From the IMG/VR virus record IMGVR_UViG_3300037466_002533, positions 1 through 64,000 of that record: DNA of 64,000 nucleotides, one strand, 5' to 3'. The DNA comes from a virus. Lineage: Duplodnaviria; Caudoviricetes. Made by a program: the position numbers and the translations under genes. Each line of letters opens with the position of its first letter. Positions within the stretch are counted from its first letter, which is position 1. Below, piece after piece: positions 3,295 to 48,135 of the stretch. The notes beneath the pieces are model-generated. The model did not search any database. It worked only from the letters and a program-made list of their open reading frames with translations, and was not told the DNA's origin.

Positions 3295-3317
3295 AGTATA
3301 GCACACTCAAAAAGATA
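3295..3317 (-). promoter_or_regulatory. promoter with TATCTTTT box, 9-nt spacer and TATACT
   Basis: minus strand TATCTTTT TGAGTGTGC TATACT. Confidence 0.65.
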
Positions 3318-35905: not shown

Positions 35906-35922
35906 AGTATAGAGTATCTTTT
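35906..35922 (-). promoter_or_regulatory. AAAAGATA-N3-TANNNT promoter
   Basis: minus strand AAAAGATA CTC TATACT. Confidence 0.6.
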
Positions 35923-36385
35923 AGTACCTTGCATTCCGACCGGAGATGAGCTGACCCCTTTGCGGGACGAAAGGCTTCCATAGCGGGATCATACCCGCCT
36001 CCTCCGGGGTACGGTCGCGCTTCTTGACGTTGCAGGTCTTGCAGGCGGCGATGGTGTTGGTCCAGGTGGACTTGCCACCCTTGGATACCGGGTGGACATG
36101 GTCTATGGTGTTGGCGGCCCCGCCGCAGTAGGCACACTTGTACTTGTCCCGCCGCAGCACGCCGGACTTACTCCAGACGATCGGCTTGGAGTAGAACCAG
36201 TCCAGCTTCTGGTACTTGATCAGGCGCATCGACAGCGGGAACGGAAACGGCCCGAAAGGGCGGTCCTCATCTACCTCATCGAACTCCGCCACGTTCCGGA
36301 TGTACATGCGGATGGCGTGACCTGGAGTGACGTAGAGGATGGGTTCCATTCCGGCGTTCTTCACCAGAACACTCTTGCGGGCCAC
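35921..36385 (-). CDS. HNH endonuclease
   Basis: CAYCG...TIDHVHPVSKGGKSTWTNTIAACKTCNVKK. Confidence 0.88.
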   Translation of the reverse strand: MARKSVLVKNAGMEPILYVTPGHAIRMYIRNVAEFDEVDEDRPFGPFPFPLSMRLIKYQKLDWFYSKPIVWSKSGVLRRDKYKCAYCGGAANTIDHVHPVSKGGKSTWTNTIAACKTCNVKKRDRTPEEAGMIPLWKPFVPQRGQLISGRNARY

Positions 36386-36476: not shown

Positions 36477-36935
36477 TCAGATCTTCAGCGCTTCGAGGGC
36501 GAGAGAGTACTTGTTCATCAGTCGACTGCGGGTGGCCTCGTCCAGCCTGGCCAGTCTTTCAGGGTCGGTGTTGTGGGCGATGTCGGCCAACTTCACCAGG
36601 CGGGCCACCCGGTGATTCCTGACTCGGGCCCAGTACTTCTCGTTGGTCTCATCCGGAAGATGGGTCAGAATGAGCACCAATGTCACCACGTAGCTCGGGA
36701 ACCCCTTGTCGAGCAGCGATATCGCAGCCTTCAGGCCGCCGCAGTCCTCGATGACGTCGTGAAGCCATGCCACAGCCTCCAGGAGGTCGATCTCCGGATC
36801 GTCCGCATGCCGCTCGCGCACGATCCTGGCCACGGCCTCGGGGTGATCGTAGTACGGTGCCCCCAGCTTGTCGGTCTGACCCAGATGAGACGATATGGCG
36901 AACTGCCTGGCATTGTCCACAAGAATGGAGTCCAT
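36477..36935 (-). CDS. HD-domain hydrolase, RelA/SpoT hydrolase (SAH/Mesh1)-like
   Basis: HLGQTDKLGAPYYDHP, WLHDVIED, LTH, VKLADIAHN. Confidence 0.78.
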   Translation of the reverse strand: MDSILVDNARQFAISSHLGQTDKLGAPYYDHPEAVARIVRERHADDPEIDLLEAVAWLHDVIEDCGGLKAAISLLDKGFPSYVVTLVLILTHLPDETNEKYWARVRNHRVARLVKLADIAHNTDPERLARLDEATRSRLMNKYSLALEALKI

Positions 36936-36938
36936 CGA

Positions 36939-37421
36939 TCAATCGCCTTTCACGTTCAGCACCTGACGAAGCTCGTGCTTGATCTCCACCAGATCCTCCT
37001 CATAATTGTTCGAGCGCTTCATTTCCTTAAGTAGATCGGAAACCCTCTTCGAGAGATCAACATCCCTCGGATCTCTCCTCAGCAGCCTTCCCTTATCATC
37101 TCGCATCCTGGGAGGCCTATTATCGAACCAGAGTAGTGCCAGATCGGCCTGGTCTCGCTTCAGCACCAGGTACGGAAGCATATCACGTAACAACGACGCG
37201 GCCCCACAGCCACTGGTCTGATATATGTAGGCGCAGCGACGAGACTCTCTTTTCAACTCACATATGGCTCCGTCGTACTTGTCACGGAGGTTATAGAATA
37301 TCCGATCCACCTTTGGCGACCTATTCTGGGTTATCTGAACACGGAGTGTTCTACCAGTTCCTCCCCCGGCATAGGTGCCAATATTCCCCTCCCCATCGAA
37401 GAATCCGACAAGATAAGACAT
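36939..37421 (-). mobile_element. LAGLIDADG homing endonuclease fused to the displaced RtcB C-terminus
   Basis: YLVGFFDGEG motif; last 18 aa DLVEIKHELRQVLNVKGD duplicate the RtcB end; lower GC. Confidence 0.82.
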
Positions 37422-37428
37422 CTCAACA

Positions 37429-38586
37429 CTAGTCGCCCTTGATGTTGACGATCTGTCTGAGGACATATCTCACCTCCACCAGATCAGAAGAGTCATTCAT
37501 AACTACTTCGACGTCCTTGTAGGCGTCCGGGTGCTCGTCCAGGAAGGCATCGGACTCGCCCCAAGCGATGCCCTCCATGCGGGCGTCCAGGTCCTCCCGG
37601 GTGAATCTGGACTTGGCCTTCGAGCGGGAGTACTCCCTACCGGCACCGTGCGGTGCGGAATTGAAGGACGACTCGTTGCCAAGCCCCTGGACCACGTAAG
37701 AACGAGTTCCCATGGATCCGGGGATCAACCCCCACTGTCCGGGCTCTGCGTTGATCGCGCCCTTGCGGGACAGCCACACACCATCGCCCAACTTCTCGGT
37801 GTAGTTGTGATGGCAAGAGATGTCCTGACGCCACTGCACGAACTCCCGCCCCATGAACAGGGACAGGGCGAAGGATACCCGGCCCATCATCTCGATCCGG
37901 TTGAGTAGAGCGAACTGCTGTGCCCAGTTGAGAGCTTCGATATAGGAGTCGAACTCGCTGGTTCCCTCCTCCAGATAGGCCAGGTCGCGATTCGGCAGTT
38001 TCTTGCCGTCGCAGAGCTTCTGAGCCACCTCGATGTGCTTCTGGGCCAGCCTGTTGCCCACCCCACGGGATCCGGAGTGCAGGAACATCCACACCCGGTC
38101 ATCCTCGTCCAGGCTGACCTCGATGAAGTGGTTGCCCGAACCCAGGGATCCAAGCTGCAGCCGCCAATTGGGAGATACCTCCTCGGCCTGCTCGATGCCG
38201 GGGAGGGACTCCAGGGCGAAGATCCGGGAGGATTTGGCGCGGCCGGAGGGGCTGTTGTACTTCCCCGCCGACAGCGGGATATCCTTCGAGATAGCTGCAT
38301 GCAGGACACGCAGATCGCCTGCGGCCAGCAGGTCATCGCGCCTGAACTGGGTCAACACCGCGTTCATGCCGCAGCCGATGTCCACACCGACGGCGGCAGG
38401 CATGATCGCGCCCATGGTCGGGATGACGGAGCCTACGGTGGCACCCTTGCCCAGATGGGCATCCGGCATCAGAGCCAGCCAGGGCTGTACGAACGGCATG
38501 GAGGCGGTCTGGAAGGCCTGCTCCAGCGTCTGCGGCGCGATGATCGACGCCCAGTTGAGCAGCTTGTCGTTCAGGATCTGCATCAT
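37429..38586 (-). CDS. rtcB: RtcB RNA 2',3'-cyclic phosphate/5'-OH ligase
   Basis: MPDAHLGKG, VGVDIGCG, LGSGNHF, HSGSRG, HHNY, PGSMG, HGAGR, AYKD. Confidence 0.95.
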   Translation of the reverse strand: MMQILNDKLLNWASIIAPQTLEQAFQTASMPFVQPWLALMPDAHLGKGATVGSVIPTMGAIMPAAVGVDIGCGMNAVLTQFRRDDLLAAGDLRVLHAAISKDIPLSAGKYNSPSGRAKSSRIFALESLPGIEQAEEVSPNWRLQLGSLGSGNHFIEVSLDEDDRVWMFLHSGSRGVGNRLAQKHIEVAQKLCDGKKLPNRDLAYLEEGTSEFDSYIEALNWAQQFALLNRIEMMGRVSFALSLFMGREFVQWRQDISCHHNYTEKLGDGVWLSRKGAINAEPGQWGLIPGSMGTRSYVVQGLGNESSFNSAPHGAGREYSRSKAKSRFTREDLDARMEGIAWGESDAFLDEHPDAYKDVEVVMNDSSDLVEVRYVLRQIVNIKGD

Positions 38587-38593
38587 GCCCTAA

Positions 38594-38610
38594 ACGATAG
38601 CATATCTCTT
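38594..38610 (-). promoter_or_regulatory. AAGAGATA-N3-TANNNT promoter for rtcB
   Basis: minus strand AAGAGATA TGC TATCGT. Confidence 0.5.
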
Positions 38611-38668
38611 AAGCAAAAGGCCCCTGCGCATTTGAGCATCGTGGAGAGGCTTGGCAGGGGCTCGGTTG

Positions 38669-38738
38669 CTGCCAGGGTAGGTGTCGAACCTACACCACGA
38701 GGGTCAAAGCCTCGCTGCCCTGCCGAGAGCACCTGGCA
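38669..38738 (-). tRNA. tRNA-Gln(TTG), shortened D arm
   Basis: TGCCAGG/CCTGGCA, CGAGG-CTTTGAC-CCTCG, T loop TTCGACA. Confidence 0.8.
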
Positions 38739-38743
38739 ATAGG

Positions 38744-38815
38744 CCGACGCGGCTGGATTCGAACCGAGCTTCCCGAGCTTTGCCACCCGTGGTCCACCAT
38801 GGACTCTTCACGTCG
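38744..38815 (-). tRNA. degenerate tRNA-like gene with 8-nt anticodon loop (TGGCAAAG)
   Basis: CGACGTG/CGCGTCG acceptor, GTCC/GGAC D stem, bulged T stem with TTCGAAT. Confidence 0.45.
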
Positions 38816-38819
38816 CCGG

Positions 38820-38892
38820 AGCCCGAGACCTGATTCGAACAGGCGCTTCCACGTTACGAGGGTGGCGTGCTACCGCTAGACACTACCCGGGC
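38820..38892 (-). tRNA. tRNA-Thr(CGT)
   Basis: cloverleaf, loop CT-CGT-AA. Confidence 0.88.
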
Positions 38893-38893
38893 G

Positions 38894-38967
38894 AGCCCCA
38901 AGCCGAGTATGATTCGGCACCTTCGCTTTACAAGAGCGACGTTCTAGCCGGTTGAAACTATTGGGGC
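38894..38967 (-). tRNA. tRNA-Thr(TGT), T loop ATCATAC
   Basis: cloverleaf, loop CT-TGT-AA. Confidence 0.8.
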
Positions 38968-39053
38968 TAGTGCACGGTGCTCTATCCCCTGAGCTACATC
39001 GCGTCCCATGAGGGATAGCAGGCACGGATTCGAACCGTGCGACCTCCGCGCCG
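38968..39053 (-). ncRNA. circularly permuted tRNA mimic (T arm, capped acceptor region, D arm)
   Basis: CGCGG AGGTC GCACGG TTCGAAT CCGTGC ... TCCC TCAT GGGA ... TA GCTC AGGGGATA GAGC A CCGTG; CCGTG pairs with CGCGG. Confidence 0.7.
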
Positions 39054-39125
39054 AGCCCATGCCGAGATTCGAACTCGGTCTTCCATCGTACCAGGATGGC
39101 GTACCACCAGTAATACTTCACGGGC
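39054..39125 (-). tRNA. tRNA-Thr(GGT)
   Basis: cloverleaf, loop CT-GGT-AC. Confidence 0.88.
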
Positions 39126-39273
39126 CTGCCCCTCTTCGCCCACCCGCTTCCAGGCGCGATGGCGACGATGTCCGACGCGGCTCCTGGACGGCTCATCCGA
39201 GCCAGACGCATCGGTGGATTGGTCGGGGACTCAACCCTCTGGGGTACACTACGGTTGCCGTGCGAGCCCATAG

Positions 39274-39347
39274 TCAGCCACCCGCGAGTCGAACGCGGTA
39301 TCTCTGCAATCCCGATGCAGCGGATTATGCCGTTTTCCCAGTGGCTG
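39274..39347 (-). tRNA. tRNA-Pro(GGG)
   Basis: cloverleaf, loop TC-GGG-AT (C at 33). Confidence 0.75.
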
Positions 39348-39363
39348 GTATTCAGTTATAGCG

Positions 39364-39437
39364 TCGGGATGGCAGGAGTTGAACCTGCTATCTTCCGGAT
39401 CCGAACCGGACGGATTATGCCGTTTTCCCACATCCCG
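39364..39437 (-). tRNA. tRNA-Pro(CGG)
   Basis: cloverleaf, loop TT-CGG-AT. Confidence 0.88.
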
Positions 39438-39521
39438 TTAGCCCGAGGTTTGTCTGGATGGCTTACATCCACCGGCCGCGCCGGAGGGTCATCGCCGCTT
39501 CGCGATCCTCGGATCCCTTCG

Positions 39522-39594
39522 TCGGGGAGGTGGGACTCGAACCCACGTTCTCCTGCCTCCAAAGCAGGCGGCCTTGCCGCTGGCCTACACCCCG
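39522..39594 (-). tRNA. tRNA-Pro(TGG)
   Basis: cloverleaf, loop TT-TGG-AG. Confidence 0.92.
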
Positions 39595-39694
39595 TTAGCC
39601 AGATCCCTGCTAGAGGAGCTGGGTTTCGCCTTAGGTCCGGTCTAGCAGTACGCGCCGGGTTTCAAGCCTCGGCCGCAACCGAACCACGGCTACG

Positions 39695-39769
39695 TGCCCC
39701 CGGCACGATTCGAACGTGCGACCCACTACTTAAAAGGAAGCTGCTCTGGCCAGACTGAGCTACGGAGGC
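39695..39769 (-). tRNA. tRNA-Lys(TTT)
   Basis: cloverleaf, loop CT-TTT-AA. Confidence 0.9.
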
Positions 39770-39785
39770 ATATTAAGTTGTAACG

Positions 39786-39859
39786 CTCCGGTAGAAGGGT
39801 TCGAACCTACAACTTCCTCCTTAACAGGGAGGCACTCTGCCTAGTTGAGTTATACCGGA
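39786..39859 (-). tRNA. tRNA-Asn(GTT)
   Basis: cloverleaf, loop CT-GTT-AA. Confidence 0.92.
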
Positions 39860-39873
39860 ATAACGGTACTGCG

Positions 39874-39947
39874 CCCACCTGGTTCGATTCGAACGAACGA
39901 CATACCCGGCTTCAACGGGTCCCTCTCCCAGACTGAGGTACAGGTGG
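39874..39947 (-). tRNA. tRNA-Phe(GAA)
   Basis: cloverleaf, loop TT-GAA-GC, G73. Confidence 0.85.
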
Positions 39948-40046
39948 TTAGATGTTCACTTATTACATCAACATCTTCTTTAGTGACTTAGGCTGAACCC
40001 CCCAGACGCCAGCTCCTCTATGCGTCTATCTATATCGACTGCCACG

Positions 40047-40132
40047 CGGAAAGCTGAGGTCACGATCCCCAGCCGGTCTCCCGGCCCAACTCTTTAGCAA
40101 AGAGCGCCCACGCCCTGGTGGGTTAACCTTCC
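40047..40132 (-). tRNA. tRNA-Ser(GCT), T loop ATCGTGA
   Basis: long variable arm, loop TT-GCT-AA, G73. Confidence 0.8.
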
Positions 40133-40176
40133 ATGTCAGAAGTTTACCACTTTCGGTAAACTTCCGTCAACTCTAT

Positions 40177-40398
40177 TTAGTTGTCACCGCCGTCTTCGGC
40201 TACGGGGATGGAGATCTTGATATTCAGCCTGTCCTCGGAGTCTCGCCAGACCTCGATCTCCATCTCGTCCAGGACAGGGGTTAGGTCCTCGGAGTCCACC
40301 CTGCTAGCCACTGCGGCCAGGGTCCGGACGATCGCCTCGAACCAATGGTCCTGCTTGTCCTGCTGCAGGACGGAGTGGGCTCTAACCATTGACGCCAT
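40177..40398 (-). CDS. hypothetical protein (73 aa) inside tRNA array
   Basis: ORF filling the gap between tRNAs. Confidence 0.55.
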   Translation of the reverse strand: MASMVRAHSVLQQDKQDHWFEAIVRTLAAVASRVDSEDLTPVLDEMEIEVWRDSEDRLNIKISIPVAEDGGDN

Positions 40399-40421
40399 AT
40401 TAAGTTTCCTTAGTTTTCACG

Positions 40422-40492
40422 AGGGGATGACGAGAATCGAACTCGCGTATTCAGTTTGGAAGACTGACGCTCTACCGTTGAGCTACATCCCC
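40422..40492 (-). tRNA. tRNA-Gly(TCC)
   Basis: cloverleaf, loop CT-TCC-AA. Confidence 0.93.
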
Positions 40493-40630
40493 ATGCTAGC
40501 TGCGTCGATCGACATACGTTCCGCCACCACGGCGGTCGCCACGCCAACCTGCACGCTAGGTGCTGCATCCATAGCCGCCGCCAGTGAATGGGTGGTTGGG
40601 CCGTCCAGTCAGCGGTACACATGGATCGCG

Positions 40631-40702
40631 AGGCCCCGACGTGATTCGAACACGCACATAACAGGGTTGCAGCCTGCTGCCTTACCATTCAGCCACGGGA
40701 CC
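40631..40702 (-). tRNA. tRNA-Cys(GCA)
   Basis: cloverleaf, loop CT-GCA-AC, U73. Confidence 0.92.
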
Positions 40703-40731
40703 ATCATCTAACTATTAAGTTGTACTCGCAC

Positions 40732-40748
40732 ATCATACCATATCTCTT
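40732..40748 (-). promoter_or_regulatory. AAGAGATA-N3-TANNNT promoter in tRNA array
   Basis: minus strand AAGAGATA TGG TATGAT. Confidence 0.5.
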
Positions 40749-40750
40749 TG

Positions 40751-40825
40751 TACCCCAGCCAGGGCTCGAACCTGGACCTTTCGGTTTTTAAGACCGTGCC
40801 ATACTACCAGTTGGGCTACTGGGGC
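40751..40825 (-). tRNA. tRNA-Leu(TAA), short variable loop
   Basis: loop CT-TAA-AA, A73. Confidence 0.8.
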
Positions 40826-40826
40826 G

Positions 40827-40910
40827 CGGAGGCCGGAGGGCACGATCCCCTGCGACTGAACGCTCAACCCGCTTCGAACGGGCGCCTGCCACCTGGCAGA
40901 TTCAGCCTCC
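40827..40910 (-). tRNA. tRNA-Ser(CGA), T loop ATCGTGC
   Basis: long variable arm, loop TT-CGA-AG, G73. Confidence 0.78.
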
Positions 40911-40911
40911 A

Positions 40912-40997
40912 TGGCGGAAAGGCGGAGAATTGAACTCCACGGCTGTTAGACCGCGCTGACTTTCCAGATCAGCTCCGGGACCACCCGGTGCCCTTCC
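40912..40997 (-). tRNA. tRNA-Ser(GGA), CCA encoded
   Basis: long variable arm, loop CT-GGA-AA. Confidence 0.85.
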
Positions 40998-40998
40998 G

Positions 40999-41081
40999 AG
41001 GAGGGTAACAGTAACGATCTGTCAGGCTTGCACCTGGCCGAGTTTTCAAGACTCGCAGCCGGACCTCCGGCACTACCCTCC
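40999..41081 (-). tRNA. tRNA-Ser(TGA), T loop ATCGTTA
   Basis: long variable arm, loop CT-TGA-AA, U73. Confidence 0.75.
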
Positions 41082-41086
41082 GAGCG

Positions 41087-41160
41087 TACTCCTGGCCGGA
41101 TTCGAACCGGCACTGGACGGGACTTGAGACCGTTGCCGCTGCCAATTGGGCTACAGGAGC
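41087..41160 (-). tRNA. tRNA-Leu(CAA), short variable loop
   Basis: loop CT-CAA-GT, A73. Confidence 0.85.
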
Positions 41161-41171
41161 ATTACTGGAAT

Positions 41172-41265
41172 GCCATGTCGGCTCTCACCCGGGTCGAACG
41201 GGCTCCGCCTTGATCAGGGACGAATCGGGAGGGATCAGCTCCACAGCCTAGCTCGCCGACATAGC
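41172..41265 (-). ncRNA. tRNA-like cloverleaf without a normal anticodon loop
   Basis: 11-bp closing stem, AGCT/AGCT arm, TGATC/GATCA arm with 17-nt loop, GCCCG-TTCGACC-CGGGT T arm. Confidence 0.5.
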
Positions 41266-41271
41266 ACGCCG

Positions 41272-41347
41272 TACTCACGGAGGGATTCGAACCCACAACG
41301 CACCGGATCTGAGCCGGAGTCCTCTGCCAAAATTGGGATACGTGAGC
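41272..41347 (-). tRNA. tRNA-Leu(CAG), short variable loop
   Basis: loop CT-CAG-AT, A73. Confidence 0.88.
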
Positions 41348-41370
41348 ATGTTCAGTTCTTGTACTACAAG

Positions 41371-41443
41371 TGCCGCAGACGGGGGTCGAACCCGCATCAT
41401 CCACCTTGAAAGGGTGGCGCCCTGACCATTAGACCACTGCGAC
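41371..41443 (-). tRNA. tRNA-Glu(TTC)
   Basis: cloverleaf, loop CT-TTC-AA. Confidence 0.9.
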
Positions 41444-41444
41444 G

Positions 41445-41517
41445 TACCCCAGGAGGGAATTGAACCCCCGACAGGTTGGATATAAGCCAACTGCTCTCAC
41501 CACTGAGCTACTGGGGC
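41445..41517 (-). tRNA. tRNA-Ile(TAT)
   Basis: cloverleaf, loop CT-TAT-AT, A73. Confidence 0.88.
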
Positions 41518-41673
41518 AAGACGTGCCCGGCGGGATCCATACCGGTCGGGCAAACGCTGCGTCGTCACGGAGGCTACCCGATGAAACGACTGGACCTGCA
41601 GCGACGGACTATCTCCAGCCTTATCCGTCCATGATTAGCTTGGCCCGGAAGCCATCCCGGGTTGCATCTGGAG

Positions 41674-41748
41674 TACTCTCGGAAGGATTTGAACCTTCGC
41701 ATCCCACCTTATCAGGGTGGTGCCTTAACCGGACTTGGCCACGAGAGC
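41674..41748 (-). tRNA. tRNA-Ile(GAT)
   Basis: cloverleaf, loop CT-GAT-AA. Confidence 0.92.
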
Positions 41749-41753
41749 TTGCG

Positions 41754-41826
41754 TACTCCGAGAGGGACTCGAACCCTCGACCCACCGATTAAGAGTCGGT
41801 TGCCTCTGCCGCTGAGCTACCGGAGC
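41754..41826 (-). tRNA. tRNA-Lys(CTT)
   Basis: cloverleaf, loop CT-CTT-AA. Confidence 0.92.
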
Positions 41827-41844
41827 ATGTTCAGTTGTCCTACG

Positions 41845-41918
41845 AGGGGTAGACGGGGTTCGAACCCGCGACCTTCACCTTGGCAAGGTGACGCGCTGAC
41901 CAACTGCGCTACTACCCC
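41845..41918 (-). tRNA. tRNA-Gly(GCC)
   Basis: cloverleaf, loop TT-GCC-AA. Confidence 0.95.
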
Positions 41919-42044
41919 AGTGCAGCCCAAGGGGAGATTCTCGACGCTCACCACGCCATGTGACCATGCGGAGCTGGCCTGGGGCCAGGAGCTGGTCTCG
42001 GCATCGCAGGGAGCTACCCTGATACCGACGTTCAAGGACTGTCG

Positions 42045-42113
42045 AGCCCCCCGAGCGAGTCGAACGCTCCTGCCGAGATTCGTAGTCTCAGCGATGGATC
42101 CGCCATGGAAGGC
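42045..42113 (-). tRNA. tRNA-Arg(ACG), reduced D arm
   Basis: loop CT-ACG-AA, T loop TTCGACT, 69 nt. Confidence 0.72.
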
Positions 42114-42119
42114 ATGTCG

Positions 42120-42338
42120 CTAGAAGGTCTCTAGCTGCTGCTCCGGTAATCTTACTACAGTGATATGACGTTGTCTAGTGCTTATCTCATCCCCGTGAAC
42201 CTGGATCTTGACATTGCCCAGCTCGTCGGTGTCTACGCCGTGAACTCGCCAGTCCTGGTCCCATACCTTGAGGCCGTCGCCGGTCTTCACCCTGCAAGCC
42301 TTCTTGAGCCGTGTCCGTCCCATGTACATGCCGGGCAT
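42120..42338 (-). CDS. hypothetical protein (about 70 aa)
   Basis: ORF filling the gap between tRNAs. Confidence 0.5.
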   Translation of the reverse strand: MPGMYMGRTRLKKACRVKTGDGLKVWDQDWRVHGVDTDELGNVKIQVHGDEISTRQRHITVVRLPEQQLETF

Positions 42339-42385
42339 TGTACCACACCTACCTATTGGTGGCTCCCAAGGGTAGGCACCCTACG

Positions 42386-42455
42386 TACCCGCACTGAGAG
42401 TCGAACTCAGCAACCGAACCTTCGGAGGGTTCGGCGCGCATCCGGCGCTACGGGT
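42386..42455 (-). tRNA. tRNA-Arg(CCG), atypical (no 8-9 connector, 7-bp anticodon stem)
   Basis: ACCCGTA GCGC CGGAT GCGC G CCGAACC CT-CCG-AA GGTTCGG TTG CTGAG TTCGACT CTCAG TGCGGGT A. Confidence 0.7.
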
Positions 42456-42456
42456 C

Positions 42457-42533
42457 TGGCGCCCCAGGCAGGATTCGAACCCGCATCGTCCGTTACGGCT
42501 GAACTGCTTAGAAGACAGTGCCGGTACTGGGGC
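42457..42533 (-). tRNA. tRNA-Arg(TCT), D-armless with long variable arm, CCA encoded
   Basis: GCCCCAG TACCGGC ACTGT CT-TCT-AA GCAGT [18 nt] GCGGG TTCGAAT CCTGC CTGGGGC G CCA. Confidence 0.7.
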
Positions 42534-42538
42534 CAGCG

Positions 42539-42610
42539 TCTCCCAGGAGGGATTCGAACCCCCAACCTAGACGTTAGGACCGTCTTGCTCTTCCGTTGAG
42601 CTACTAGGAG
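42539..42610 (-). tRNA. tRNA-Arg(CCT)
   Basis: cloverleaf, loop GT-CCT-AA. Confidence 0.88.
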
Positions 42611-42617
42611 ATATGAT

Positions 42618-42827
42618 CTACTTGCGGAGCACTATGGCCGCGAAGATCACGACCACGATGGTCAAAACCAGGGCCAGTGCGAATGCTCCCCAGAGCGGGG
42701 CAGTCACCCACCACCAGGACCAGGAGATCACACCGACCAGCTTCAGGACGAGGAACACCACGAAGAGGACGAACCCAACCCCCATGGGCTGAGAGTTGAC
42801 CTTGACCGATATTTCTCCGCTGAACAT
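42618..42827 (-). CDS. small two-TM membrane protein
   Basis: VLFVVFLVLKLVGVISWSWWWVTAPLWG. Confidence 0.75.
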   Translation of the reverse strand: MFSGEISVKVNSQPMGVGFVLFVVFLVLKLVGVISWSWWWVTAPLWGAFALALVLTIVVVIFAAIVLRK

Positions 42828-42852
42828 CTTTCCCTTTTCCTTCTCTTGAGAG

Positions 42853-42927
42853 TGCTCTCGAAGCGATTCGAACGCTCACTGTCAACGATCTCGGCGTTGT
42901 CCCTCTGCCAGATTGGGGTACGAGAGC
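42853..42927 (-). tRNA. tRNA-Leu(GAG), short variable loop
   Basis: loop CC-GAG-AT, A73. Confidence 0.85.
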
Positions 42928-42942
42928 CAGGTTTTCAGTTAT

Positions 42943-43110
42943 TCACCATCGAGACATGGCGTCGAGGTATTCCTCTCGGCCGCACGGAGGGCAGTATACC
43001 ACATAGTTGTACGGTGCGTCGGCGACTTTCTGGGCCTCCTCCGGAGCGAGTTCCCGCAGGACCTTGCCGCAGGACTGGCACTCCAGAACGGCCACCATCA
43101 TCTGGGCCAT
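42943..43110 (-). CDS. small zinc-ribbon protein (55 aa)
   Basis: GGAGG RBS, CQSC...CPPC. Confidence 0.65.
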   Translation of the reverse strand: MAQMMVAVLECQSCGKVLRELAPEEAQKVADAPYNYVVYCPPCGREEYLDAMSRW

Positions 43111-43314
43111 GGGGCACCTCCACTCTTGTTGTGGCACGGCAGATTCGCTTCTCGCGGGGTCTCCCCTTGTGGGAGAGAATGCCCAATCCACTTCACCGTG
43201 CCCGGCTCTTTCGCCGTCTGCCACTTGAGTTCGTAGACTGACTACATCCGGCTGGCTAGACCGGACCAAGCCATTCCGATGGCCTGATACCCAAAGGGGC
43301 CTAGTTGCGCCCCG

Positions 43315-43388
43315 TGCTCCCGAGGCGATTCGAACGCCCACTGGCCAGGATCTAAGCCTGGTGCCTCTGCCAATTGGGCTACGGGAGC
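43315..43388 (-). tRNA. tRNA-Leu(TAG), short variable loop
   Basis: loop CT-TAG-AT, A73. Confidence 0.9.
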
Positions 43389-43394
43389 TTTCGT

Positions 43395-43637
43395 TCAGAC
43401 CAGGACGGACTCGGCCAGGGACCTCTGGAACTTGCGCTGCGAGTCCCGGAGGTTGCGCTTGCCGTCGACGTTCCAGCGGGGCCCGACCGGGATGAAGTTT
43501 CCGGTCTTGAGGACAATGACACCGTAGTGCGATCCTCGTGGGCGACTCTTCTGGACGTGAGCTTCTGACCTGAACTTGATATGCTCGCCACGCTTGGTAC
43601 GGGCGACCCAGATGACATCCTTGATCTTGGCGGACAT
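43395..43637 (-). CDS. basic hypothetical protein (80 aa)
   Basis: AGGAG RBS, ORF. Confidence 0.6.
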   Translation of the reverse strand: MSAKIKDVIWVARTKRGEHIKFRSEAHVQKSRPRGSHYGVIVLKTGNFIPVGPRWNVDGKRNLRDSQRKFQRSLAESVLV

Positions 43638-43690
43638 TTGAAGGTCTCCTCATTCGTTGTGTCCGGCTTTCTTACCCGGATCCTACGATG

Positions 43691-43707
43691 AGTGTATCCT
43701 ATCTTTT
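43691..43707 (-). promoter_or_regulatory. AAAAGATA-N3-TANNNT promoter
   Basis: minus strand AAAAGATA GGA TACACT. Confidence 0.6.
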
Positions 43708-43719
43708 TCATCGATCCAA

Positions 43720-44031
43720 CTAGGCGTGAGACAGCTCGTGAGCCTCCAGGTCGGTGGGGTCCAGGTCGACCCGGGCCTTCTGTTTGCCCCCGGACCAGCT
43801 CAACACGATGCGGATGGGGCACTCCACCTGAGCCCCGCACGTCAGACAGTTGATGAGCACGAAAGTCTTTGGTGCACGGTCCATCTCGGGCTTCAGAACC
43901 AGGGCGTAGTGGGCGGCGAAGATGCTGCGATAGTCCTGGTTGTCCTCGGACTTGCTCTTACGCCACTGCGACCCTGCCCAGAACGCCAGGACGGACAAGA
44001 GGACCATGAACACGGCTAGCGTCGGGATCAA
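43720..44031 (-). CDS. membrane-anchored protein with CLTC motif
   Basis: N-terminal hydrophobic helix. Confidence 0.6.
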   Translation of the reverse strand: MIPTLAVFMVLLSVLAFWAGSQWRKSKSEDNQDYRSIFAAHYALVLKPEMDRAPKTFVLINCLTCGAQVECPIRIVLSWSGGKQKARVDLDPTDLEAHELSHA

Positions 44032-44038
44032 AGCGATA

Positions 44039-44086
44039 CCCCCTCGGCTACAGGATTCCTATTTATTAGGCCTGCAGCCGAGGGGG
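44039..44086. terminator. strong hairpin downstream of the Ro gene
   Basis: CCCCCTCGGCT(A)CAGG...CCTG(C)AGCCGAGGGGG. Confidence 0.5.
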
Positions 44087-44139
44087 CTCGTATTAGCTGG
44101 TACGGCTATTGTACCCTCATACGGTACGATAGCCGACGA

Positions 44140-45801
44140 TCAGGACTCCCAGGGCCAGCTTCCGAATCCAGCCGCCTCGATGTTCTGCATCATGGCGAAC
44201 GCCGAGTCGGTCAAGCCTCCGACCGCGTAGAAGTTCCCGCGACCCTGCGGCGCATGAGCCGCCTGGTACCCGGCGACGTTGAACGTGAAGGTCGTGACAT
44301 CGGCGGGAACCACGTCCGGCAGGGACTTGCCGTAGTAGTCGGCCTGCTCGTCGGTGACGATCACCAACCGGTTGACGGCGCCTCGGAACCGACGCAGCAA
44401 CGTCTCGGCGACCTGAACGGTCCTGGTGCCTCCGGCGATGGGTAGCTCCTTGTAGAACCTCTGAATGTTGGACAGCAGCGAGGCGCTGTAGTCCACCGTG
44501 AACGGATCAGACCGGTCGTCGTAGGCGAACACCACGGCGTTCTCCGCACGCAGCGCCAGGGCCAGGCCGAAGGCCACTGCGTTGTCGTACCGGCTCACGG
44601 TTGAGTTGCCCGAAAGGAGGTCACTCATCGATCCGGAACGGTCGATCATCACCAGGGTGTCACCGGACAGCTCCGGCACCGAGCGCAGGGAGATGTCCAG
44701 GGCCTTGGACAGTGCTGGCTCCCACAGCTTGCGGTACTTGGGCTGTACGGCCTCCGACACAGTCCGGAGTCCGTAGTACCCGGCGGGCTGCGGAGCGACG
44801 GCGCGGTACGCGGACAGGAACCGCAGCGGGAGCTGCCTGGACGACAGCACCGCCTCCTCATCAGCGATCTTCTCGGCCACGAACTTGGCGTAGGAGTCCG
44901 AGATTCCGGCCTTTGCGAAGTTGCGGAGGTTGCGGATCAGCGCCATGTACCCCATGTTCGGGATCACGGACTCCCAGAAGGTCGCGGTCAACTCACCACC
45001 GAACCAGGATGCCAGGGACTCCCAGGTGTGTCCGGCGAGCCGGGCGGCATCCGGGTGATCCTTCAGGAACGCCTCACGTTCCTCCCGAGGGATGTCCGCC
45101 ATGACCTGGCGGTCGACCAGCGTCGTTAATCCCTGGTATCTGGATAGGTCGACGTTGTCGTATCGGCGATCCTGCGCGTAGGCGAAAACCGCTGCCTTGT
45201 AGGGGCTGTCGGTAGTGTCGACCTGAGACAGGGAGATGACGTCGCCGAAACGGATTGCGGCGCCCTGAGAGTCGTACTTCAGGACCGACTTCTCGTTGTA
45301 CAGGGCCTTCGCGGCATCACCCAGGGCGCGCTTGAACCACTTGGGCAACGGCTTGCCGTAGTTGGCCAGCCAATAGCCCAGGGCCTCGCTCGGCTCGTCG
45401 GCGCGCTGCAGCACGGAGCGTAGCACGGCACGAGGGGTGAGGCTGTCGAACGGAGCACGCCCGCTGACCGTCCGGCCATACTCGATGGCGCCGGTGATCG
45501 CGGCGGTGCGGATGTTCCCGCTGGTGCGCAGCCAGGAGAGGAAGTTGGCCACCCACTCCGGGTCGGCCTTTGCCACGGAGCGAATCAACTCGACGTAGCG
45601 GCTGTCGCGAGCCTCGGCGGACTCGTAATAGGTATCCTGGCCGGTGAAGTTGGTGACCCCCAGGAGGAACAGGGCGGACTTCTCGGCGTACGCGAATCCC
45701 TTGCCGCCGTTGCCGGTCGGCACGTCGGACTTCGGGGACGCGGTCAGCACCGAGGTGTTGCCACTCGGCGCGGTGCGCACGTTCTTGGTGAAGCGAGCCA
45801 C
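44140..45801 (-). CDS. rsr: Ro60/TROVE-domain RNA-binding protein with vWA domain
   Basis: GNIRTAAI, YDSQG, GYMALIRNLRN, SRQLPLRFLSAY TROVE motifs; IDRSGSMS and IVTDEQ vWA MIDAS; start reset to GTG 45801 after GGAGG. Confidence 0.92.
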   Translation of the reverse strand: MARFTKNVRTAPSGNTSVLTASPKSDVPTGNGGKGFAYAEKSALFLLGVTNFTGQDTYYESAEARDSRYVELIRSVAKADPEWVANFLSWLRTSGNIRTAAITGAIEYGRTVSGRAPFDSLTPRAVLRSVLQRADEPSEALGYWLANYGKPLPKWFKRALGDAAKALYNEKSVLKYDSQGAAIRFGDVISLSQVDTTDSPYKAAVFAYAQDRRYDNVDLSRYQGLTTLVDRQVMADIPREEREAFLKDHPDAARLAGHTWESLASWFGGELTATFWESVIPNMGYMALIRNLRNFAKAGISDSYAKFVAEKIADEEAVLSSRQLPLRFLSAYRAVAPQPAGYYGLRTVSEAVQPKYRKLWEPALSKALDISLRSVPELSGDTLVMIDRSGSMSDLLSGNSTVSRYDNAVAFGLALALRAENAVVFAYDDRSDPFTVDYSASLLSNIQRFYKELPIAGGTRTVQVAETLLRRFRGAVNRLVIVTDEQADYYGKSLPDVVPADVTTFTFNVAGYQAAHAPQGRGNFYAVGGLTDSAFAMMQNIEAAGFGSWPWES

Positions 45802-45821
45802 GATGTTCCTCCACTGGGTTG

Positions 45822-45894
45822 GGTTCCGATATAAGGGTGGGATCGGTTGGGTTTCCATTATGAGTGAAGTAACCGAACCCAGCACACCGGAACC
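45822..45894 (-). ncRNA. minimal Y RNA (YrlB-like, no tRNA domain)
   Basis: GGTTCC GGTGTG ... GTTACTTC ... TTATATC GGAACC; same terminal motifs as the two adjacent YrlA. Confidence 0.7.
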
Positions 45895-45906
45895 GATGTC
45901 ACGAGT

Positions 45907-45924
45907 AGTGTAGCACAATCTTTT
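45907..45924 (-). promoter_or_regulatory. AAAAGATT-N4-TANNNT promoter for minimal Y RNA and rsr
   Basis: minus strand AAAAGATT GTGC TACACT. Confidence 0.55.
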
Positions 45925-45932
45925 TGCATGGC

Positions 45933-46071
45933 GGACAGATATAGAGGCGGCCTTGGTCTTTCGTCAGCCCGCTCTACCACTTGAGCTACCAGCCCCGAAA
46001 TGGAACTGGACGGGATTCGAACCCGCAACCTAGCTGGTTCATAGAAGTATCCATGACCTGCGCACCTGTCC
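45933..46071 (-). ncRNA. yrlA: YrlA-type Y RNA 1
   Basis: GGACA GGTGCG...GATACTTC...GCGGG TTCGAAT CCCGT CCAGTTCC ATTTC GGGGCTGG TA GCTC AAGTGGTA GAGC...TATATC TGTCC. Confidence 0.88.
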
Positions 46072-46083
46072 TACCAGGTAGCT

Positions 46084-46214
46084 GAGCAGATATAAGTCGC
46101 ACGAGGAAATGTTAGCGCTCTGCCATTGAGCTACCGCCCCATTGGAGCGGCCGGGACTCGAACCCGGATCTCTCTGTTCATAATCAGAAGTAACCTCGAA
46201 CTACGCACCTGCTC
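46084..46214 (-). ncRNA. yrlA: YrlA-type Y RNA 2
   Basis: GAGCA GGTGCG...GTTACTTC...CCGGG TTCGAGT CCCGG CCGCTCC AAT GGGGCGG TA GCTC AATGGCA GAGC...TTATATC TGCTC. Confidence 0.88.
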
Positions 46215-46301
46215 TGGTGAGGATGGAGGGATTCGAACCCCCTAAGCCAATGGCGGCGCGGTTACGGCGCGCTACGACCACTCCATCGTCGTCGCATCCT
46301 C
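46215..46301 (-). tRNA. tRNA-Tyr(GTA), CCA encoded
   Basis: long variable arm, loop CC-GTA-AC, A73. Confidence 0.82.
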
Positions 46302-46451
46302 AGATTCACCGCTTGACCTGCCATACCGTTGCGCAATACGAAGGCAGTATCTTCATGTCTCCTCAAACCAGTCGGGGACGACACTTCTGGCCCTGCCCTG
46401 GCTGACATTGACTGGCTAGTTATCGCAGGCCGCAGGCGGTGAAGGCCATAG

Positions 46452-46524
46452 CACGGGTGACAAGATTCGAACTCGCAACCAACGACTTTGGAGATCGCTG
46501 CTCTCCCAATTGAGCTACACCCGT
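46452..46524 (-). tRNA. tRNA-Trp(CCA)
   Basis: cloverleaf, loop CT-CCA-AA, G73. Confidence 0.92.
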
Positions 46525-46553
46525 ATATGTTCTCTGTTGAGTTGTCTTGTGAC

Positions 46554-46570
46554 AGCCTACGCTATCTCTT
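46554..46570 (-). promoter_or_regulatory. AAGAGATA-N3-TANNNT promoter
   Basis: minus strand AAGAGATA GCG TAGGCT. Confidence 0.5.
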
Positions 46571-46754
46571 ACCTGTCCGCAACCAGCTTTTCGAGCTGGC
46601 TCGGGTCGGTGGCCTTCGAGTGATTGTCTCCCCGGTACCGGACGAACACCCAGGTGTTGTTGACCGAGGTGATGACCCCGTCCTCCCTGGAGCCGTTGCC
46701 GTTCTTGTACACAACTCCGGCGCCCAGGAGGCTCTTGGCCTCTTCGATCGTCAT
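46569..46754 (-). CDS. hypothetical protein (61 aa)
   Basis: GGAGGAG RBS. Confidence 0.65.
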   Translation of the reverse strand: MTIEEAKSLLGAGVVYKNGNGSREDGVITSVNNTWVFVRYRGDNHSKATDPSQLEKLVADR

Positions 46755-46778
46755 AGCTCCTCCATGCGATCTTCCTAG

Positions 46779-46853
46779 CGATTCGTACGGGATTCGAACC
46801 CGTGTTCTCCACCGTGACAGGGTGGCGCTTTCGGCCAGCTAAGCTAACGAACC
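46779..46853 (-). tRNA. tRNA-Asp(GTC)
   Basis: cloverleaf, loop CT-GTC-AC, G73. Confidence 0.93.
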
Positions 46854-46854
46854 T

Positions 46855-46928
46855 TGGGGTGGCCGGACGGTAATGATCCGTCTTCCCCGCAGTCACAGTG
46901 CAGTGCATTACCTTTATGCTACGGCCAC
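46855..46928 (-). tRNA. tRNA-His(GTG), T loop ATCATTA, CCA encoded
   Basis: loop CT-GTG-AC, C73; encoded -1 base is T. Confidence 0.82.
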
Positions 46929-46930
46929 AG

Positions 46931-47002
46931 TACCGGTACCCTGAGTCGAACAGGGGCACGGAGGGTATGAGTCTCCTGCTCTCGCCACTGAGCTATACCG
47001 GC
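46931..47002 (-). tRNA. tRNA-Met or Ile2 (CAT)
   Basis: cloverleaf, loop CT-CAT-AC. Confidence 0.85.
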
Positions 47003-47036
47003 ATATGTAGTTGTAATTTCCTGCGACTTAATTGCG

Positions 47037-47109
47037 CTGCCCCCGAAGGATTCGAACCTCCACCCAAGACATTCAGAATGTCCGACACTGCCGATTATGC
47101 TAGAGGGCA
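47037..47109 (-). tRNA. tRNA-Gln(CTG)
   Basis: U1-A72, loop TT-CTG-AA, G73. Confidence 0.88.
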
Positions 47110-47125
47110 CTGTTCAGCTATGTAG

Positions 47126-47199
47126 TGGCGGGGGCCAGATTCGAACTGACGACCTTCAGCTTATGAGGCTGACGAGCTACCGAGCTGCTCTACCCCGCA
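47126..47199 (-). tRNA. tRNA-Met(CAT), initiator-like
   Basis: U1-C72 mismatch and fMet-type D arm GAGCAGCTCGGTAGCTC. Confidence 0.85.
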
Positions 47200-47364
47200 T
47201 TGATCTGGAGCCTTCCTTTACAGGGCGCTCCAGCATACCCCGGCCGCAGTGCGGTGATCTTCCGCAGTAACGGACTTTGATCGATGGCTTCGTCCCCAGA
47301 TGCCTTTTCGCTAAGTGGCACCATGATATGGGGATAACCCAACCATCGATCCTCTTTGGTGTGG

Positions 47365-47374
47365 ATTCTACACA
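47365..47374 (-). promoter_or_regulatory. extended -10 element
   Basis: minus strand TGTG TAGAAT upstream of the structured spacer at 47205-47345. Confidence 0.4.
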
Positions 47375-47391
47375 GTTCGAACCCTAACCAG

Positions 47392-47460
47392 TGGAGGATA
47401 CCGGAATCGAACCGGTCTAGGGACCGTGCAAAGGTCCCGTGATTTCCCAGATCATCCCCC
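47392..47460 (-). tRNA. tRNA-Ala(TGC), reduced D arm
   Basis: G3-U70, GGGACC-TTTGCAC-GGTCCC, 69 nt. Confidence 0.78.
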
Positions 47461-47563
47461 GGGGAACAGCTATTAAGTTAGGAACGTCACCACATGCCTA
47501 CTAGGATAGCCAACATCAAAATGGATCTCAGCGGATCATCCTAAGCACTATTCAGTTGTCGAG

Positions 47564-47634
47564 CACCCCATGGCGGTTACGATCCGCCTCCGCCTGACTG
47601 AGAATCAGGAAGACTGCCATTATCCGAATGGGGC
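47564..47634 (-). tRNA. tRNA-Glu(CTC), T loop ATCGTAA
   Basis: loop TT-CTC-AG. Confidence 0.8.
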
Positions 47635-47808
47635 TTGTTGTGCCGGTCGAGCGGGCCTGGTAGGCGGCCAACCACCGGCACTAGGGTAGGAATCCGGACC
47701 CTATCCGGCCCTTCCCCCAGCCACTGCCGCCCCGGCTACCACCCCGGTTTAGCATTTCCATGGGAGCAGTTTATGTCGAAAGACGACAGTTCCATACTCC
47801 AGGGAACG

Positions 47809-47881
47809 TACACCCGGCAGGACTCGAACCTGCGATAAGCTGTGTGTAAAACAGCCGCCTTAGCCGCTAGACGACGGGTGC
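47809..47881 (-). tRNA. tRNA-Val(TAC)
   Basis: cloverleaf, loop TT-TAC-AC, A73. Confidence 0.9.
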
Positions 47882-47889
47882 AAGATTTG

Positions 47890-48135
47890 ATGAGCTACTA
47901 AGCCTGGCCGGGTACCCTCGGCAACTGTCGGCTGTTCGCTCACTGGATCGCTGAGCCTCACCGCTCCCATCCGGCTCTCCAGACCCTGGTGAGGGGCCTC
48001 GGAGCTAACGTCTCTGTGAAGTTAGGTGCCCTGTTAGCCGGGGCCAGGCCCGGGACCGTTGTTACCCATTGTCCCGGAGCAGGGGCGGAGATTATGTGTG
48101 ACCCTCACCCTCTCCGCTAGGTGAGGCACGTCTTG
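47890..48135 (-). ncRNA. unassigned pseudoknotted structured RNA heading the tRNA array
   Basis: H-type pseudoknot CCTCACC/GGTGAGG with GCGGAGA/TCTCCGC; CCGGGAC hairpin; GCCTGGCC/GGCCAGGC closing a multibranch domain. Confidence 0.55.

Follow-up and report, generated by a model that had tools for sequence, protein, structure and literature searches.

A compact island of tRNA, RNA-repair and orphan antitoxin-RNA elements in a metagenomic actinophage contig: a candidate module for sustaining translation under tRNA damage

The window studied here comprises the first 64 kb (positions 1 to 64,000) of the IMG/VR viral contig IMGVR_UViG_3300037466_002533, which is 88.7 kb long and has a GC content of about 60%; its CheckV completeness of about 59% corresponds to a full genome size of roughly 150 kb. 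At positions 36477-48135 the window carries an 11.7-kb island in which a predicted small alarmone hydrolase (SAH), an RtcB RNA ligase, a Ro60 orthologue with YrlA-like Y RNAs, about 40 tRNAs and an orphan RNA hairpin of the abiF motif lie close together. Every part of the island is encoded on the minus strand, as is a gene for a CCA-adding enzyme located outside of it, and all the tRNAs of the 88.7-kb contig are confined to the region between 38.6 and 47.9 kb. The main elements are the following:

599..2059, minus strand: CCA-adding enzyme with a C-terminal HD domain, outside the island and 34 kb away
36477..36935, minus strand: single-domain HD_4 small alarmone hydrolase, Aph1-like, 152 amino acids (aa) (PF13328)
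37429..38586, minus strand: RtcB RNA ligase, 385 aa (PF01139, E 9e-105)
38622..38658, minus strand: orphan abiF-motif RNA hairpin (RF03085, 51 bits for a gathering score of 37)
38668..43388, minus strand: distal tRNA block, with about 30 tRNAs, oddities and small open reading frames (ORFs) (ARAGORN, Infernal RF00005)
44140..45801, minus strand: Ro60/Rsr orthologue with TROVE and vWA domains, 553 aa (TROVE, PF05731, E 4.6e-16)
45822..45894, minus strand: third, minimal Y-like hairpin in the Ro60 leader, 73 nt (minimum free energy (MFE) z -3.9)
45933..46071, minus strand: YrlA-like Y RNA no. 1 (RF02553, 37.1 bits, E 1.5e-6; closing stem GGACAG/CUGUCC)
46084..46214, minus strand: YrlA-like Y RNA no. 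2 (RF02553, 36 bits, E 3e-6; MFE z -2.95)
46215..47881, minus strand: proximal tRNA block (Val, Glu, a weak Ala, Met, Gln, Met, His, Asp, Trp and Tyr)

In bacteria, the abiF RNA sits ahead of abiF, the gene for an Abi_2 HEPN RNase. The hairpin of the island, which a preliminary description of this DNA had not mentioned, matched the full abiF model (positions 1-37; E 1.6e-6 for the window; MFE z -3.3) and is the single copy of the motif on the contig. It follows tRNA-Gln(UUG) by 9 nt, and 35 nt separate it from the start of rtcB. No Abi_2 gene was found, either with PF07751 on the 88.7-kb contig or with an Abi_2 hidden Markov model (HMM) built here on the window. Over 47 nt that include the hairpin, the sequence was the same as in the leader of a cognate Abi_2 gene from an Actinomycetes metagenome-assembled genome (MAG), and this identity takes in stem bases, which vary between AbiF systems. 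In that MAG the hairpin was the best match of the whole island, with 98% identity over 50 nt, the values for the tRNAs being 76-86%. The Abi_2 match of the MAG (L132, 1312-2438) runs across two overlapping frames, so that a frameshift or an assembly error is possible there.

The abiF-motif RNA has been shown to bind AbiF directly and to neutralise it in trans (bioRxiv 10.1101/2025.04.15.648962; review PMC12737573). The hairpin and the 23-nt conserved loop of the island copy are the same as in the abiF RNA, also named AbiFr or RCd22 (RF03085; bioRxiv 10.1101/2025.04.15.648962), although RCd22 has two motifs and the island copy a single one. Unlike in the bacterial AbiF systems, the RNA lies embedded where a tRNA array ends, and rtcB occupies the place directly after it where abiF sits in bacteria, an unusual position.

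To see how widespread such orphan copies are, a census was based on a sample of exact matches to the 23-nt loop, comprising 50 IMG/VR loci with GC contents from 33% to 67%, and a downstream Abi_2 gene was looked for with a two-round HMM built here in those copies with enough downstream sequence. An Abi_2 gene was held by only 4 of the 49 viral records with the exact loop, and Abi_2 followed the loop in 3/41 viral copies vs 51/83 bacterial ones (Fisher p = 2e-9). A tRNA on the same strand was present within 150 nt of 16 of the 50 viral copies, mostly 10-20 nt away, when 1.9 would be expected at random, whereas none of 32 bacterial orphans was adjacent to a tRNA. The Rfam threshold was reached by 12 of these 16 tRNA-adjacent copies. 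The ORFs that follow the viral copies encode capsid, HNH, radical SAM and other proteins, not toxins. Two related viral contigs (L021, 8270-8524; L023, 3525-3779) carry the hairpin between tRNA-Val and tRNA-Asn, with an 80-nt match to the transfer-messenger RNA (tmRNA) model about 60 nt past tRNA-Asn (56 bits, threshold 47). Three tRNA-less viral contigs (L009, L020 and L035) carry an orphan hairpin just upstream of the major capsid gene, where it is likely to ride a highly expressed late transcript.

The simplest reading of these observations is that the orphan abiF RNA would act as a phage-borne decoy antitoxin released by tRNA processing. A toxin-less phage RNA mimicking a type III antitoxin, the pseudo-ToxI of Pectobacterium phage phiTE, has reportedly been shown by experiment to allow escape. 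The toxin family concerned there is ToxN and not the AbiF HEPN RNase, and a comparable role of the island RNA is putative. In the literature we found no paper stating the decoy reading for a phage-borne abiF RNA or describing tRNA arrays as launch pads for anti-defence RNAs, and the main text of Weinberg 2017 contains no mention of abiF.

The gene that follows the hairpin encodes an RtcB, as had been reported beforehand. The match to PF01139 was full length (model positions 1-426, 351.7 bits), with an additional match to phrog_1075 (E 6e-135), and the motifs MPDAHLGKG, DIGCG, GSGNHF, HSGSRG and PHGAGR aligned to those of Thermus thermophilus RtcB (PDB 2epg), the metal-binding Cys, His and Asp residues and the nucleophile His (HGAGR) being kept. 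The ligase is thus predicted to be intact, and its family seals breaks with 2',3'-cyclic-phosphate and 5'-OH ends. Breaks of this kind are left by metal-independent RNases, HEPN enzymes among them. RtcB proteins are widely distributed, with 710 phage records for the family, and the best phage relatives of the island protein were those of Mycobacterium and Corynebacterium phages (54-56% identity). A nucleotide search of the phage collection with the island returned only short rtcB matches, in Mycobacterium phage Estes and Gordonia phage Culver. The Ro60 protein was 36-38% identical to proteins from Streptomyces, Arthrobacter and Gordonia phages, and its relatives in IMG/VR did not exceed 42% identity. 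The RtcB and Ro60 identities, together with the short nucleotide matches, point to an actinophage without close sequenced relatives.

The Ro60 gene with Y RNAs announced in the preliminary description was likewise found. Besides the TROVE match, the protein matched phrog_850 (E 8e-45) and the TROVE proteins of PDB 9l5y and 9kop (E 4e-22), and the metal ion-dependent adhesion site of its vWA domain, DRSGS, aligned with the DVSGS of those proteins, in keeping with the DxSxS pattern. Its start is most likely the GTG at 45801, since homologues align from residue ~39 of the longer frame and a GGAGGA site precedes this codon; the 592-aa ORF starting at 45918 was rejected as an over-call. Two YrlA-like RNAs lie 130-410 nt upstream of this start on the same strand, well inside the distance of about 4 kb used for assigning Y RNAs to Ro60 genes (PMC4201824). 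Both match the tRNA-like module of YrlA (T arm, acceptor-like hairpin, D arm), through local Infernal matches to model positions 23-86 in Y RNA no. 1 (MFE z -2.8), whose module ARAGORN mis-called as a tRNA-Arg, and 28-81 in Y RNA no. 2. The latter begins flush after the CCA of tRNA-Tyr, and its MFE fold has the textbook shape, with a long closing stem around the T arm, the acceptor-like hairpin and the D arm. The third hairpin has neither a tRNA-like module nor an Rfam match; it shares with both YrlA-like RNAs the closing stem and a GGUGYG...UACUUC...UAUAUC pattern. An extended -10-like site, GATTGTGCTACACT, was observed at 45907-45920 on the minus strand, ahead of the Ro60 leader and the third hairpin. 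The same site, GATTGTGCTACACT, recurs with two mismatches at 3295-3308 (minus strand), at the start of a 416-aa gene preceding the CCA enzyme gene. This hints at a common regulation of both genes, with a count of such sites not above chance.

Y RNAs next to phage Ro60 genes were already reported in 2014, and YrlA is an RNase P substrate that receives CCA (PMC4201824). In Salmonella Typhimurium, the rsr-yrlBA-rtcBA operon is induced by cleaved tRNAs, and YrlA has been suggested as a possible competitor for an anticodon nuclease (Hughes 2020, PMC7790460). The island resembles this operon (PMC7790460, PMC4201824) in combining, on one strand, a Ro60 orthologue, upstream tRNA-like YrlA RNAs and RtcB. 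It differs in the roughly 5.5 kb, with about 30 tRNAs, that separate RtcB from Ro60, in its up to three Y RNAs, whose stems and 5' motif deviate from the Rfam consensus, and in the additional SAH gene and abiF RNA. On these grounds Ro60, the Y RNAs and RtcB are taken as a putative phage counterpart of the bacterial tRNA-damage operon. Among phages, Streptomyces phage BRock and related phages of about 111 kb (KX925554; L054-L056) also have a Ro-like protein in the middle of an array of 25-30 tRNAs. The BRock-type Ro60 is only 37-39% identical to that of the island, and the RNA ligase annotated at the end of the BRock array is not homologous to the island RtcB by tblastn. In jumbo phages, tRNAs found with RtcB or ATP-grasp ligases, TROVE proteins, a CCA enzyme and phosphoesterases have been interpreted as an answer to host RNases (Iyer 2021, PMC7824862, section 3.4.9). 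The island has the same parts list, and the same rationale would apply to it. Unlike those sets, it is packed in one 11.7-kb block of an actinobacterial-lineage phage of roughly 150 kb, with an orphan antitoxin RNA and an alarmone hydrolase as extra parts.

The remaining protein of the island core had been labelled an SAH-like HD hydrolase, and the label was found to be fair. Its match to PF13328 was marginal (27.3 bits for a cut-off of 27.2), phrog_990 matched with E 2e-43, and hydrolase models of SpoT/RelA matched with E values from 1e-8 to 1e-9. The best solved relative was a 149-aa (p)ppApp hydrolase, PDB 7smg (E 3.3e-16, full length), with which the HP and LHDxIED motifs align; no synthetase domain is present. 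Identity to phage homologues was at most 42%. Hydrolases of this type are present in 422 phage records, spanning phages of many kinds and including some with few tRNAs. PaSpo of Salmonella phage SSU5 and Aph1 (PDB 7smg) are likewise single-domain HD_4 hydrolases of about 150 aa, and PaSpo removes the tRNA 3'-pyrophosphate installed by a small alarmone synthetase that acts as a toxin (toxSAS) (bioRxiv 10.1101/2024.07.05.602228). In comparison with these two enzymes, the substrate of the island hydrolase is a prediction drawn from sequence likeness. Compared with other phage SAHs, the island copy adjoins RtcB and a tRNA array, an adjacency unseen in the relatives examined.

With default settings, ARAGORN made 37 tRNA calls in the island, three of which were set apart as artefacts or unusual forms: one falls on the tRNA-like domain of a Y RNA, and the other two overlap each other at a D-armless Arg(UCU). 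With relaxed settings, Ser-GCU, Ser-CGA, Ser-UGA, Ala-UGC and Arg-CCG were gained, and the tmRNA calls made under these settings were treated as noise. The resulting total of about 40 anticodons, 34 of them firm and 5-6 weak, agrees with the 40 tRNAs counted in the preliminary description and provides for each of the 20 amino acids and, if wobble is allowed, for every sense codon. Many of these tRNAs scored low against the general tRNA model, 28 being above the Rfam threshold with Infernal (RF00005), and several are odd (D-armless, permuted or with A3-U70). CCA is encoded in only four (Tyr, His, Ser-GGA and the D-armless Arg), so about 36 of the 40 lack it. No introns were detected by ARAGORN with relaxed settings, and the array has no repeats beyond tRNA-derived ones. 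The distal block includes Gln, Thr (three), Pro (three), Lys (two), Asn, Phe, Ser (four), Gly (two), Cys, Leu (five), Glu, Ile (two) and Arg (four).

The folds of the four tRNA-like oddities of the distal block (38742-38815, 38968-39052, 41177-41271 and 42457-42533) were examined. The RNA at 42457-42533 (minus strand), wedged between Arg-CCU and Arg-CCG, is the tRNA-Arg(UCU) candidate (Infernal, 36.3 bits); it lacks a D arm, its variable region is long and its CCA is encoded. At 38968-39052 (minus strand) there is a free-standing permuted tRNA-like RNA in which a T arm, a capped acceptor-like hairpin and a D arm follow each other in the order of the YrlA module, with no long Ro-binding stem and an MFE z of only -1.4. 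The sole tRNA-Ala candidate (UGC, 27 bits; 47391-47460, minus strand) has a 4-69 mismatch and an A3-U70 pair; because the latter replaces the G3-U70 identity pair, its identity is doubtful and alanine charging may fail.

The CCA-adding enzyme with an HD domain had been placed correctly at 599-2059. Like class II enzymes of the E. coli Cca type, it contains, in this order, a Pol-beta (PolyA_pol) head (PF01743, E 5e-13), an RNA-binding neck domain (PF12627, E 4e-5) and an HD domain (PF01966, E 2e-8), and it matched phrog_2244 (E 7e-67). Its score against NF008137, the model for multifunctional CCA addition and repair, was 190 bits (E 6e-56) for a cut-off of 451, so that it is predicted to be a relative of the E. 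coli-type multifunctional Cca and not an equivalog. The E. coli-type enzyme carries an HD phosphoesterase domain. With about 36 of the 40 tRNAs lacking an encoded CCA, the enzyme is needed for plain tRNA maturation. The chemistry given in the preliminary description for RtcB (sealing), for CCA enzymes (rebuilding of 3' ends) and for their HD domains is that expected of the families to which these proteins are assigned by homology. The gene abuts the 416-aa gene lying upstream, which had matches in neither Pfam nor PDB and, in the Atlas, only to viral clusters without a name.

The other genes in and around the island are homing endonucleases and small ORFs. Their coding character was judged from the GC content at third codon positions (GC3), and the ones with a feature of their own are listed below:

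35921..36385, minus strand: HNH homing endonuclease bordering the island downstream (E ~1e-12 with Pfam HNH_5 and HNH; GC3 0.82)
36939..37466, minus strand: LAGLIDADG homing endonuclease, I-MsoI-like, 175 aa (PDB I-MsoI, E 2.7e-9)
43395..44031, minus strand: pair of small ORFs (80 aa and 103 aa) lying downstream of Ro60 (GC3 0.81 and 0.86)
46569-46754, minus strand: small ORF, 61 aa (phrog_18065, E 4e-12; GC3 0.87)

The LAGLIDADG gene, also missing from the preliminary description, overlaps the 3' end of rtcB by 38 nt and matches phrog_5046 (E 9e-22), whose HNH label was rejected in favour of LAGLIDADG on account of the I-MsoI match. It looks recently acquired, because its GC3 of 0.57 is unlike the 0.80-0.86 of its neighbours. 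In Corynebacterium phage Lederberg the RtcB match falls in two pieces across about 2 kb, and the best NCBIfam models for the island RtcB are intein-containing forms. Given these two observations and the LAGLIDADG overlap, rtcB looks like a homing hot spot.

The many structured spacers that had been described between the tRNAs were found only in part. Of 20 spacers of at least 45 nt, five folded with z <= -3 relative to dinucleotide shuffles; most of the others fold like shuffles and at least six hold small ORFs of 61-103 aa with a gene-like GC3 of 0.68-0.87. The idea of one long structured non-coding array was rejected on this basis. The six ORFs, all on the minus strand, are found at 40177-40398, 42120-42338, 42618-42827, 43395-43637, 43720-44031 and 46569-46754, and Shine-Dalgarno-like purine runs precede four of them. 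Two match PHROG families, both of unknown function: 46569-46754 (phrog_18065) and 42618-42827 (phrog_1374), the latter with the look of a membrane protein. The PHROG search with the 80-aa and 103-aa ORFs gave a single, weak match. The spacer at 47200-47390 (minus strand; z -3.6) is structured and non-coding: it holds an imperfect hairpin about 73 nt long, contains no ORF and is not matched in Rfam. Scans for promoters and terminators gave counts no different from those in shuffled sequences, with no significant terminator signal.

Taken together, these data suggest, with a probability that we put at about 0.6, that the island is an actinophage accessory module that sustains phage translation when the tRNA pool of the cell is depleted or damaged. 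The array would be transcribed as long precursors from which host RNase P and RNase Z would excise the tRNAs, releasing the Y RNAs and the abiF hairpin as well. The hairpin would bind host AbiF and silence the toxin, and RtcB would reseal the breaks that remain. Ro60 and the Y RNAs may handle misfolded or broken RNA, or compete for tRNA-directed nucleases, and the hydrolase would clear (p)ppApp, (p)ppGpp or tRNA 3'-pyrophosphate produced by toxic alarmone synthetases. Finally, the distant CCA enzyme would complete the approximately 36 CCA-less tRNAs and could rebuild clipped ends. Counter-defence is the best-fitting role in view of the orphan antitoxin RNA, RtcB chemistry and the way in which the bacterial operon behaves. 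The preliminary description had already proposed a layered counter-defence. Its parts are real and the orphan AbiF RNA adds a fifth layer to them, while the function assigned to them is putative and the concept itself has been published (PMC7824862, PMC7790460). For three of the targets it named, VapC, MazF and MenT, nothing was found that bears on these toxins specifically.

Several observations weigh against this interpretation. The mechanism is inferred throughout, from a metagenomic contig, and the parts are separable, occurring apart in relatives: in BRock-like phages no homologue of the island RtcB, HD hydrolase or CCA enzyme turned up with tblastn within 10 kb and an abiF core was lacking as well, Corynebacterium phage PSonyx has its RtcB 4.6 kb from the tRNAs, and in Streptomyces phage Quantum the SAH, Ro60 and tRNAs are linked only loosely. 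The HD/RtcB pair is flanked by the HNH and LAGLIDADG genes. Unlike in the rsr-yrlBA-rtcBA operon, no RtcA (PF01137) was found on the contig, nor were archease, a polynucleotide kinase-type kinase (AAA_33) or peptidyl-tRNA hydrolase; RtcR was not searched for. The two Y RNAs score below the RF02553 gathering score (36-37 vs 69 bits), their matches leaving out the stem parts of the model. No exact GNCGAA(N0-1)G motif, the putative Rsr contact, is present near their 5' ends; the three Y candidates share GGUGYG followed by G[G/U]UC...GG[A/U]UACUUC, and the nearest GNCGAA-like match is GUUCGAGG in Y RNA no. 2. As regards the hairpin, an AbiF gene could be located in the 41% of the genome that is missing, and a short U run follows it, so that it could be a mere attenuator ahead of rtcB.

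A different account is that the island serves self-sufficiency. A phage that shuts off or degrades host RNA would swap in its own tRNA pool. Maturation and quality control of these 40 strongly expressed and rather divergent tRNAs would fall to Ro60 and the Y RNAs together with RtcB and the CCA enzyme, and the hydrolase would blunt the host stringent response and so keep ribosomes active. This explains the complete tRNA set, Ro60 and the CCA enzyme just as well: the CCA-less tRNAs require the enzyme for maturation alone, the low-scoring and odd tRNAs are RNAs of the sort met by Ro60 surveillance, and the completeness of the decoding set suggests that the pool is replaced as a whole and not just for a few targeted species. 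The wide occurrence of SAH-type hydrolases, also in phages with few tRNAs, is in line with it too. However, this account leaves unexplained why an AbiF antitoxin RNA should occur as an orphan that is identical to a cognate copy from bacteria. In addition, no role of RtcB is known in maturing bacterial tRNAs without introns, no introns having been detected here, and the rsr-yrlBA-rtcBA operon of bacteria responds to tRNA cleavage. We consider it unlikely as the main function of the island.

Still less probable, in our view, is that the island has no joint mechanism and that its tRNA array is simply a permissive, highly transcribed region that has gathered morons and homing-endonuclease cargo. 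The endonuclease genes beside and inside the HD/RtcB pair, the foreign GC3 of the LAGLIDADG gene, the six unrelated small ORFs dispersed in the array, the subsets of parts held in other arrangements by relatives and the CCA gene 34 kb off are what such accretion would leave. On the other hand, all five non-tRNA parts are expected to act on tRNA-like RNA, RNA ends or translation-linked nucleotides, which makes random cargo improbable; Ro60 recurs within tRNA arrays of distant phages, tRNA-adjacent abiF hairpins recur across viral loci over the whole GC range sampled, and Ro60, Y RNA and RtcB form an operon in bacteria. The module does look assembled piecemeal, with homing endonucleases at its HD/RtcB end, to judge from these endonucleases, from the small genes scattered through it and from the other arrangements that relatives have. 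For that reason the term "integrated" in the preliminary description, which proximity and the shared strand favour, stays an inference from these two features.

Each part of the proposed counter-defence module is ordinary for phages, and so is its overall rationale. Unusual are the dense packing of five RNA-directed functions and a full tRNA set into 11.7 kb and the orphan antitoxin RNA itself; the rest is equipment for RNA supply and repair of types known from phages. A more specific scenario, which we put forward tentatively and rate somewhat below even odds, is that the hairpin is a captured host antitoxin lodged in a tRNA precursor, from which RNase P and RNase Z would release it to silence AbiF, that it is deliberately paired with the downstream rtcB, whose product would repair HEPN breaks, and that phage tRNA arrays serve as platforms for anti-defence RNAs. 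If this were true, one locus would hold both prevention and repair against the same nuclease class, beside tRNA replacement, Y RNAs and alarmone removal.

Defences directed at RNA and tRNA, such as anticodon nucleases, HEPN RNases, Cas13 and toxic alarmone synthetases, are a fast-growing field in which few phage answers have been worked out. The locus offers a compact test bed for them, since it would replace, repair and mimic tRNAs, remove alarmones and supply a false antitoxin from one block. Of all the parts, the orphan AbiF antitoxin RNA promises most as a lead, as it makes a simple prediction of action in trans and names a likely target on the host side. It also hints that phage tRNA arrays may double as launch pads for small anti-defence RNAs.

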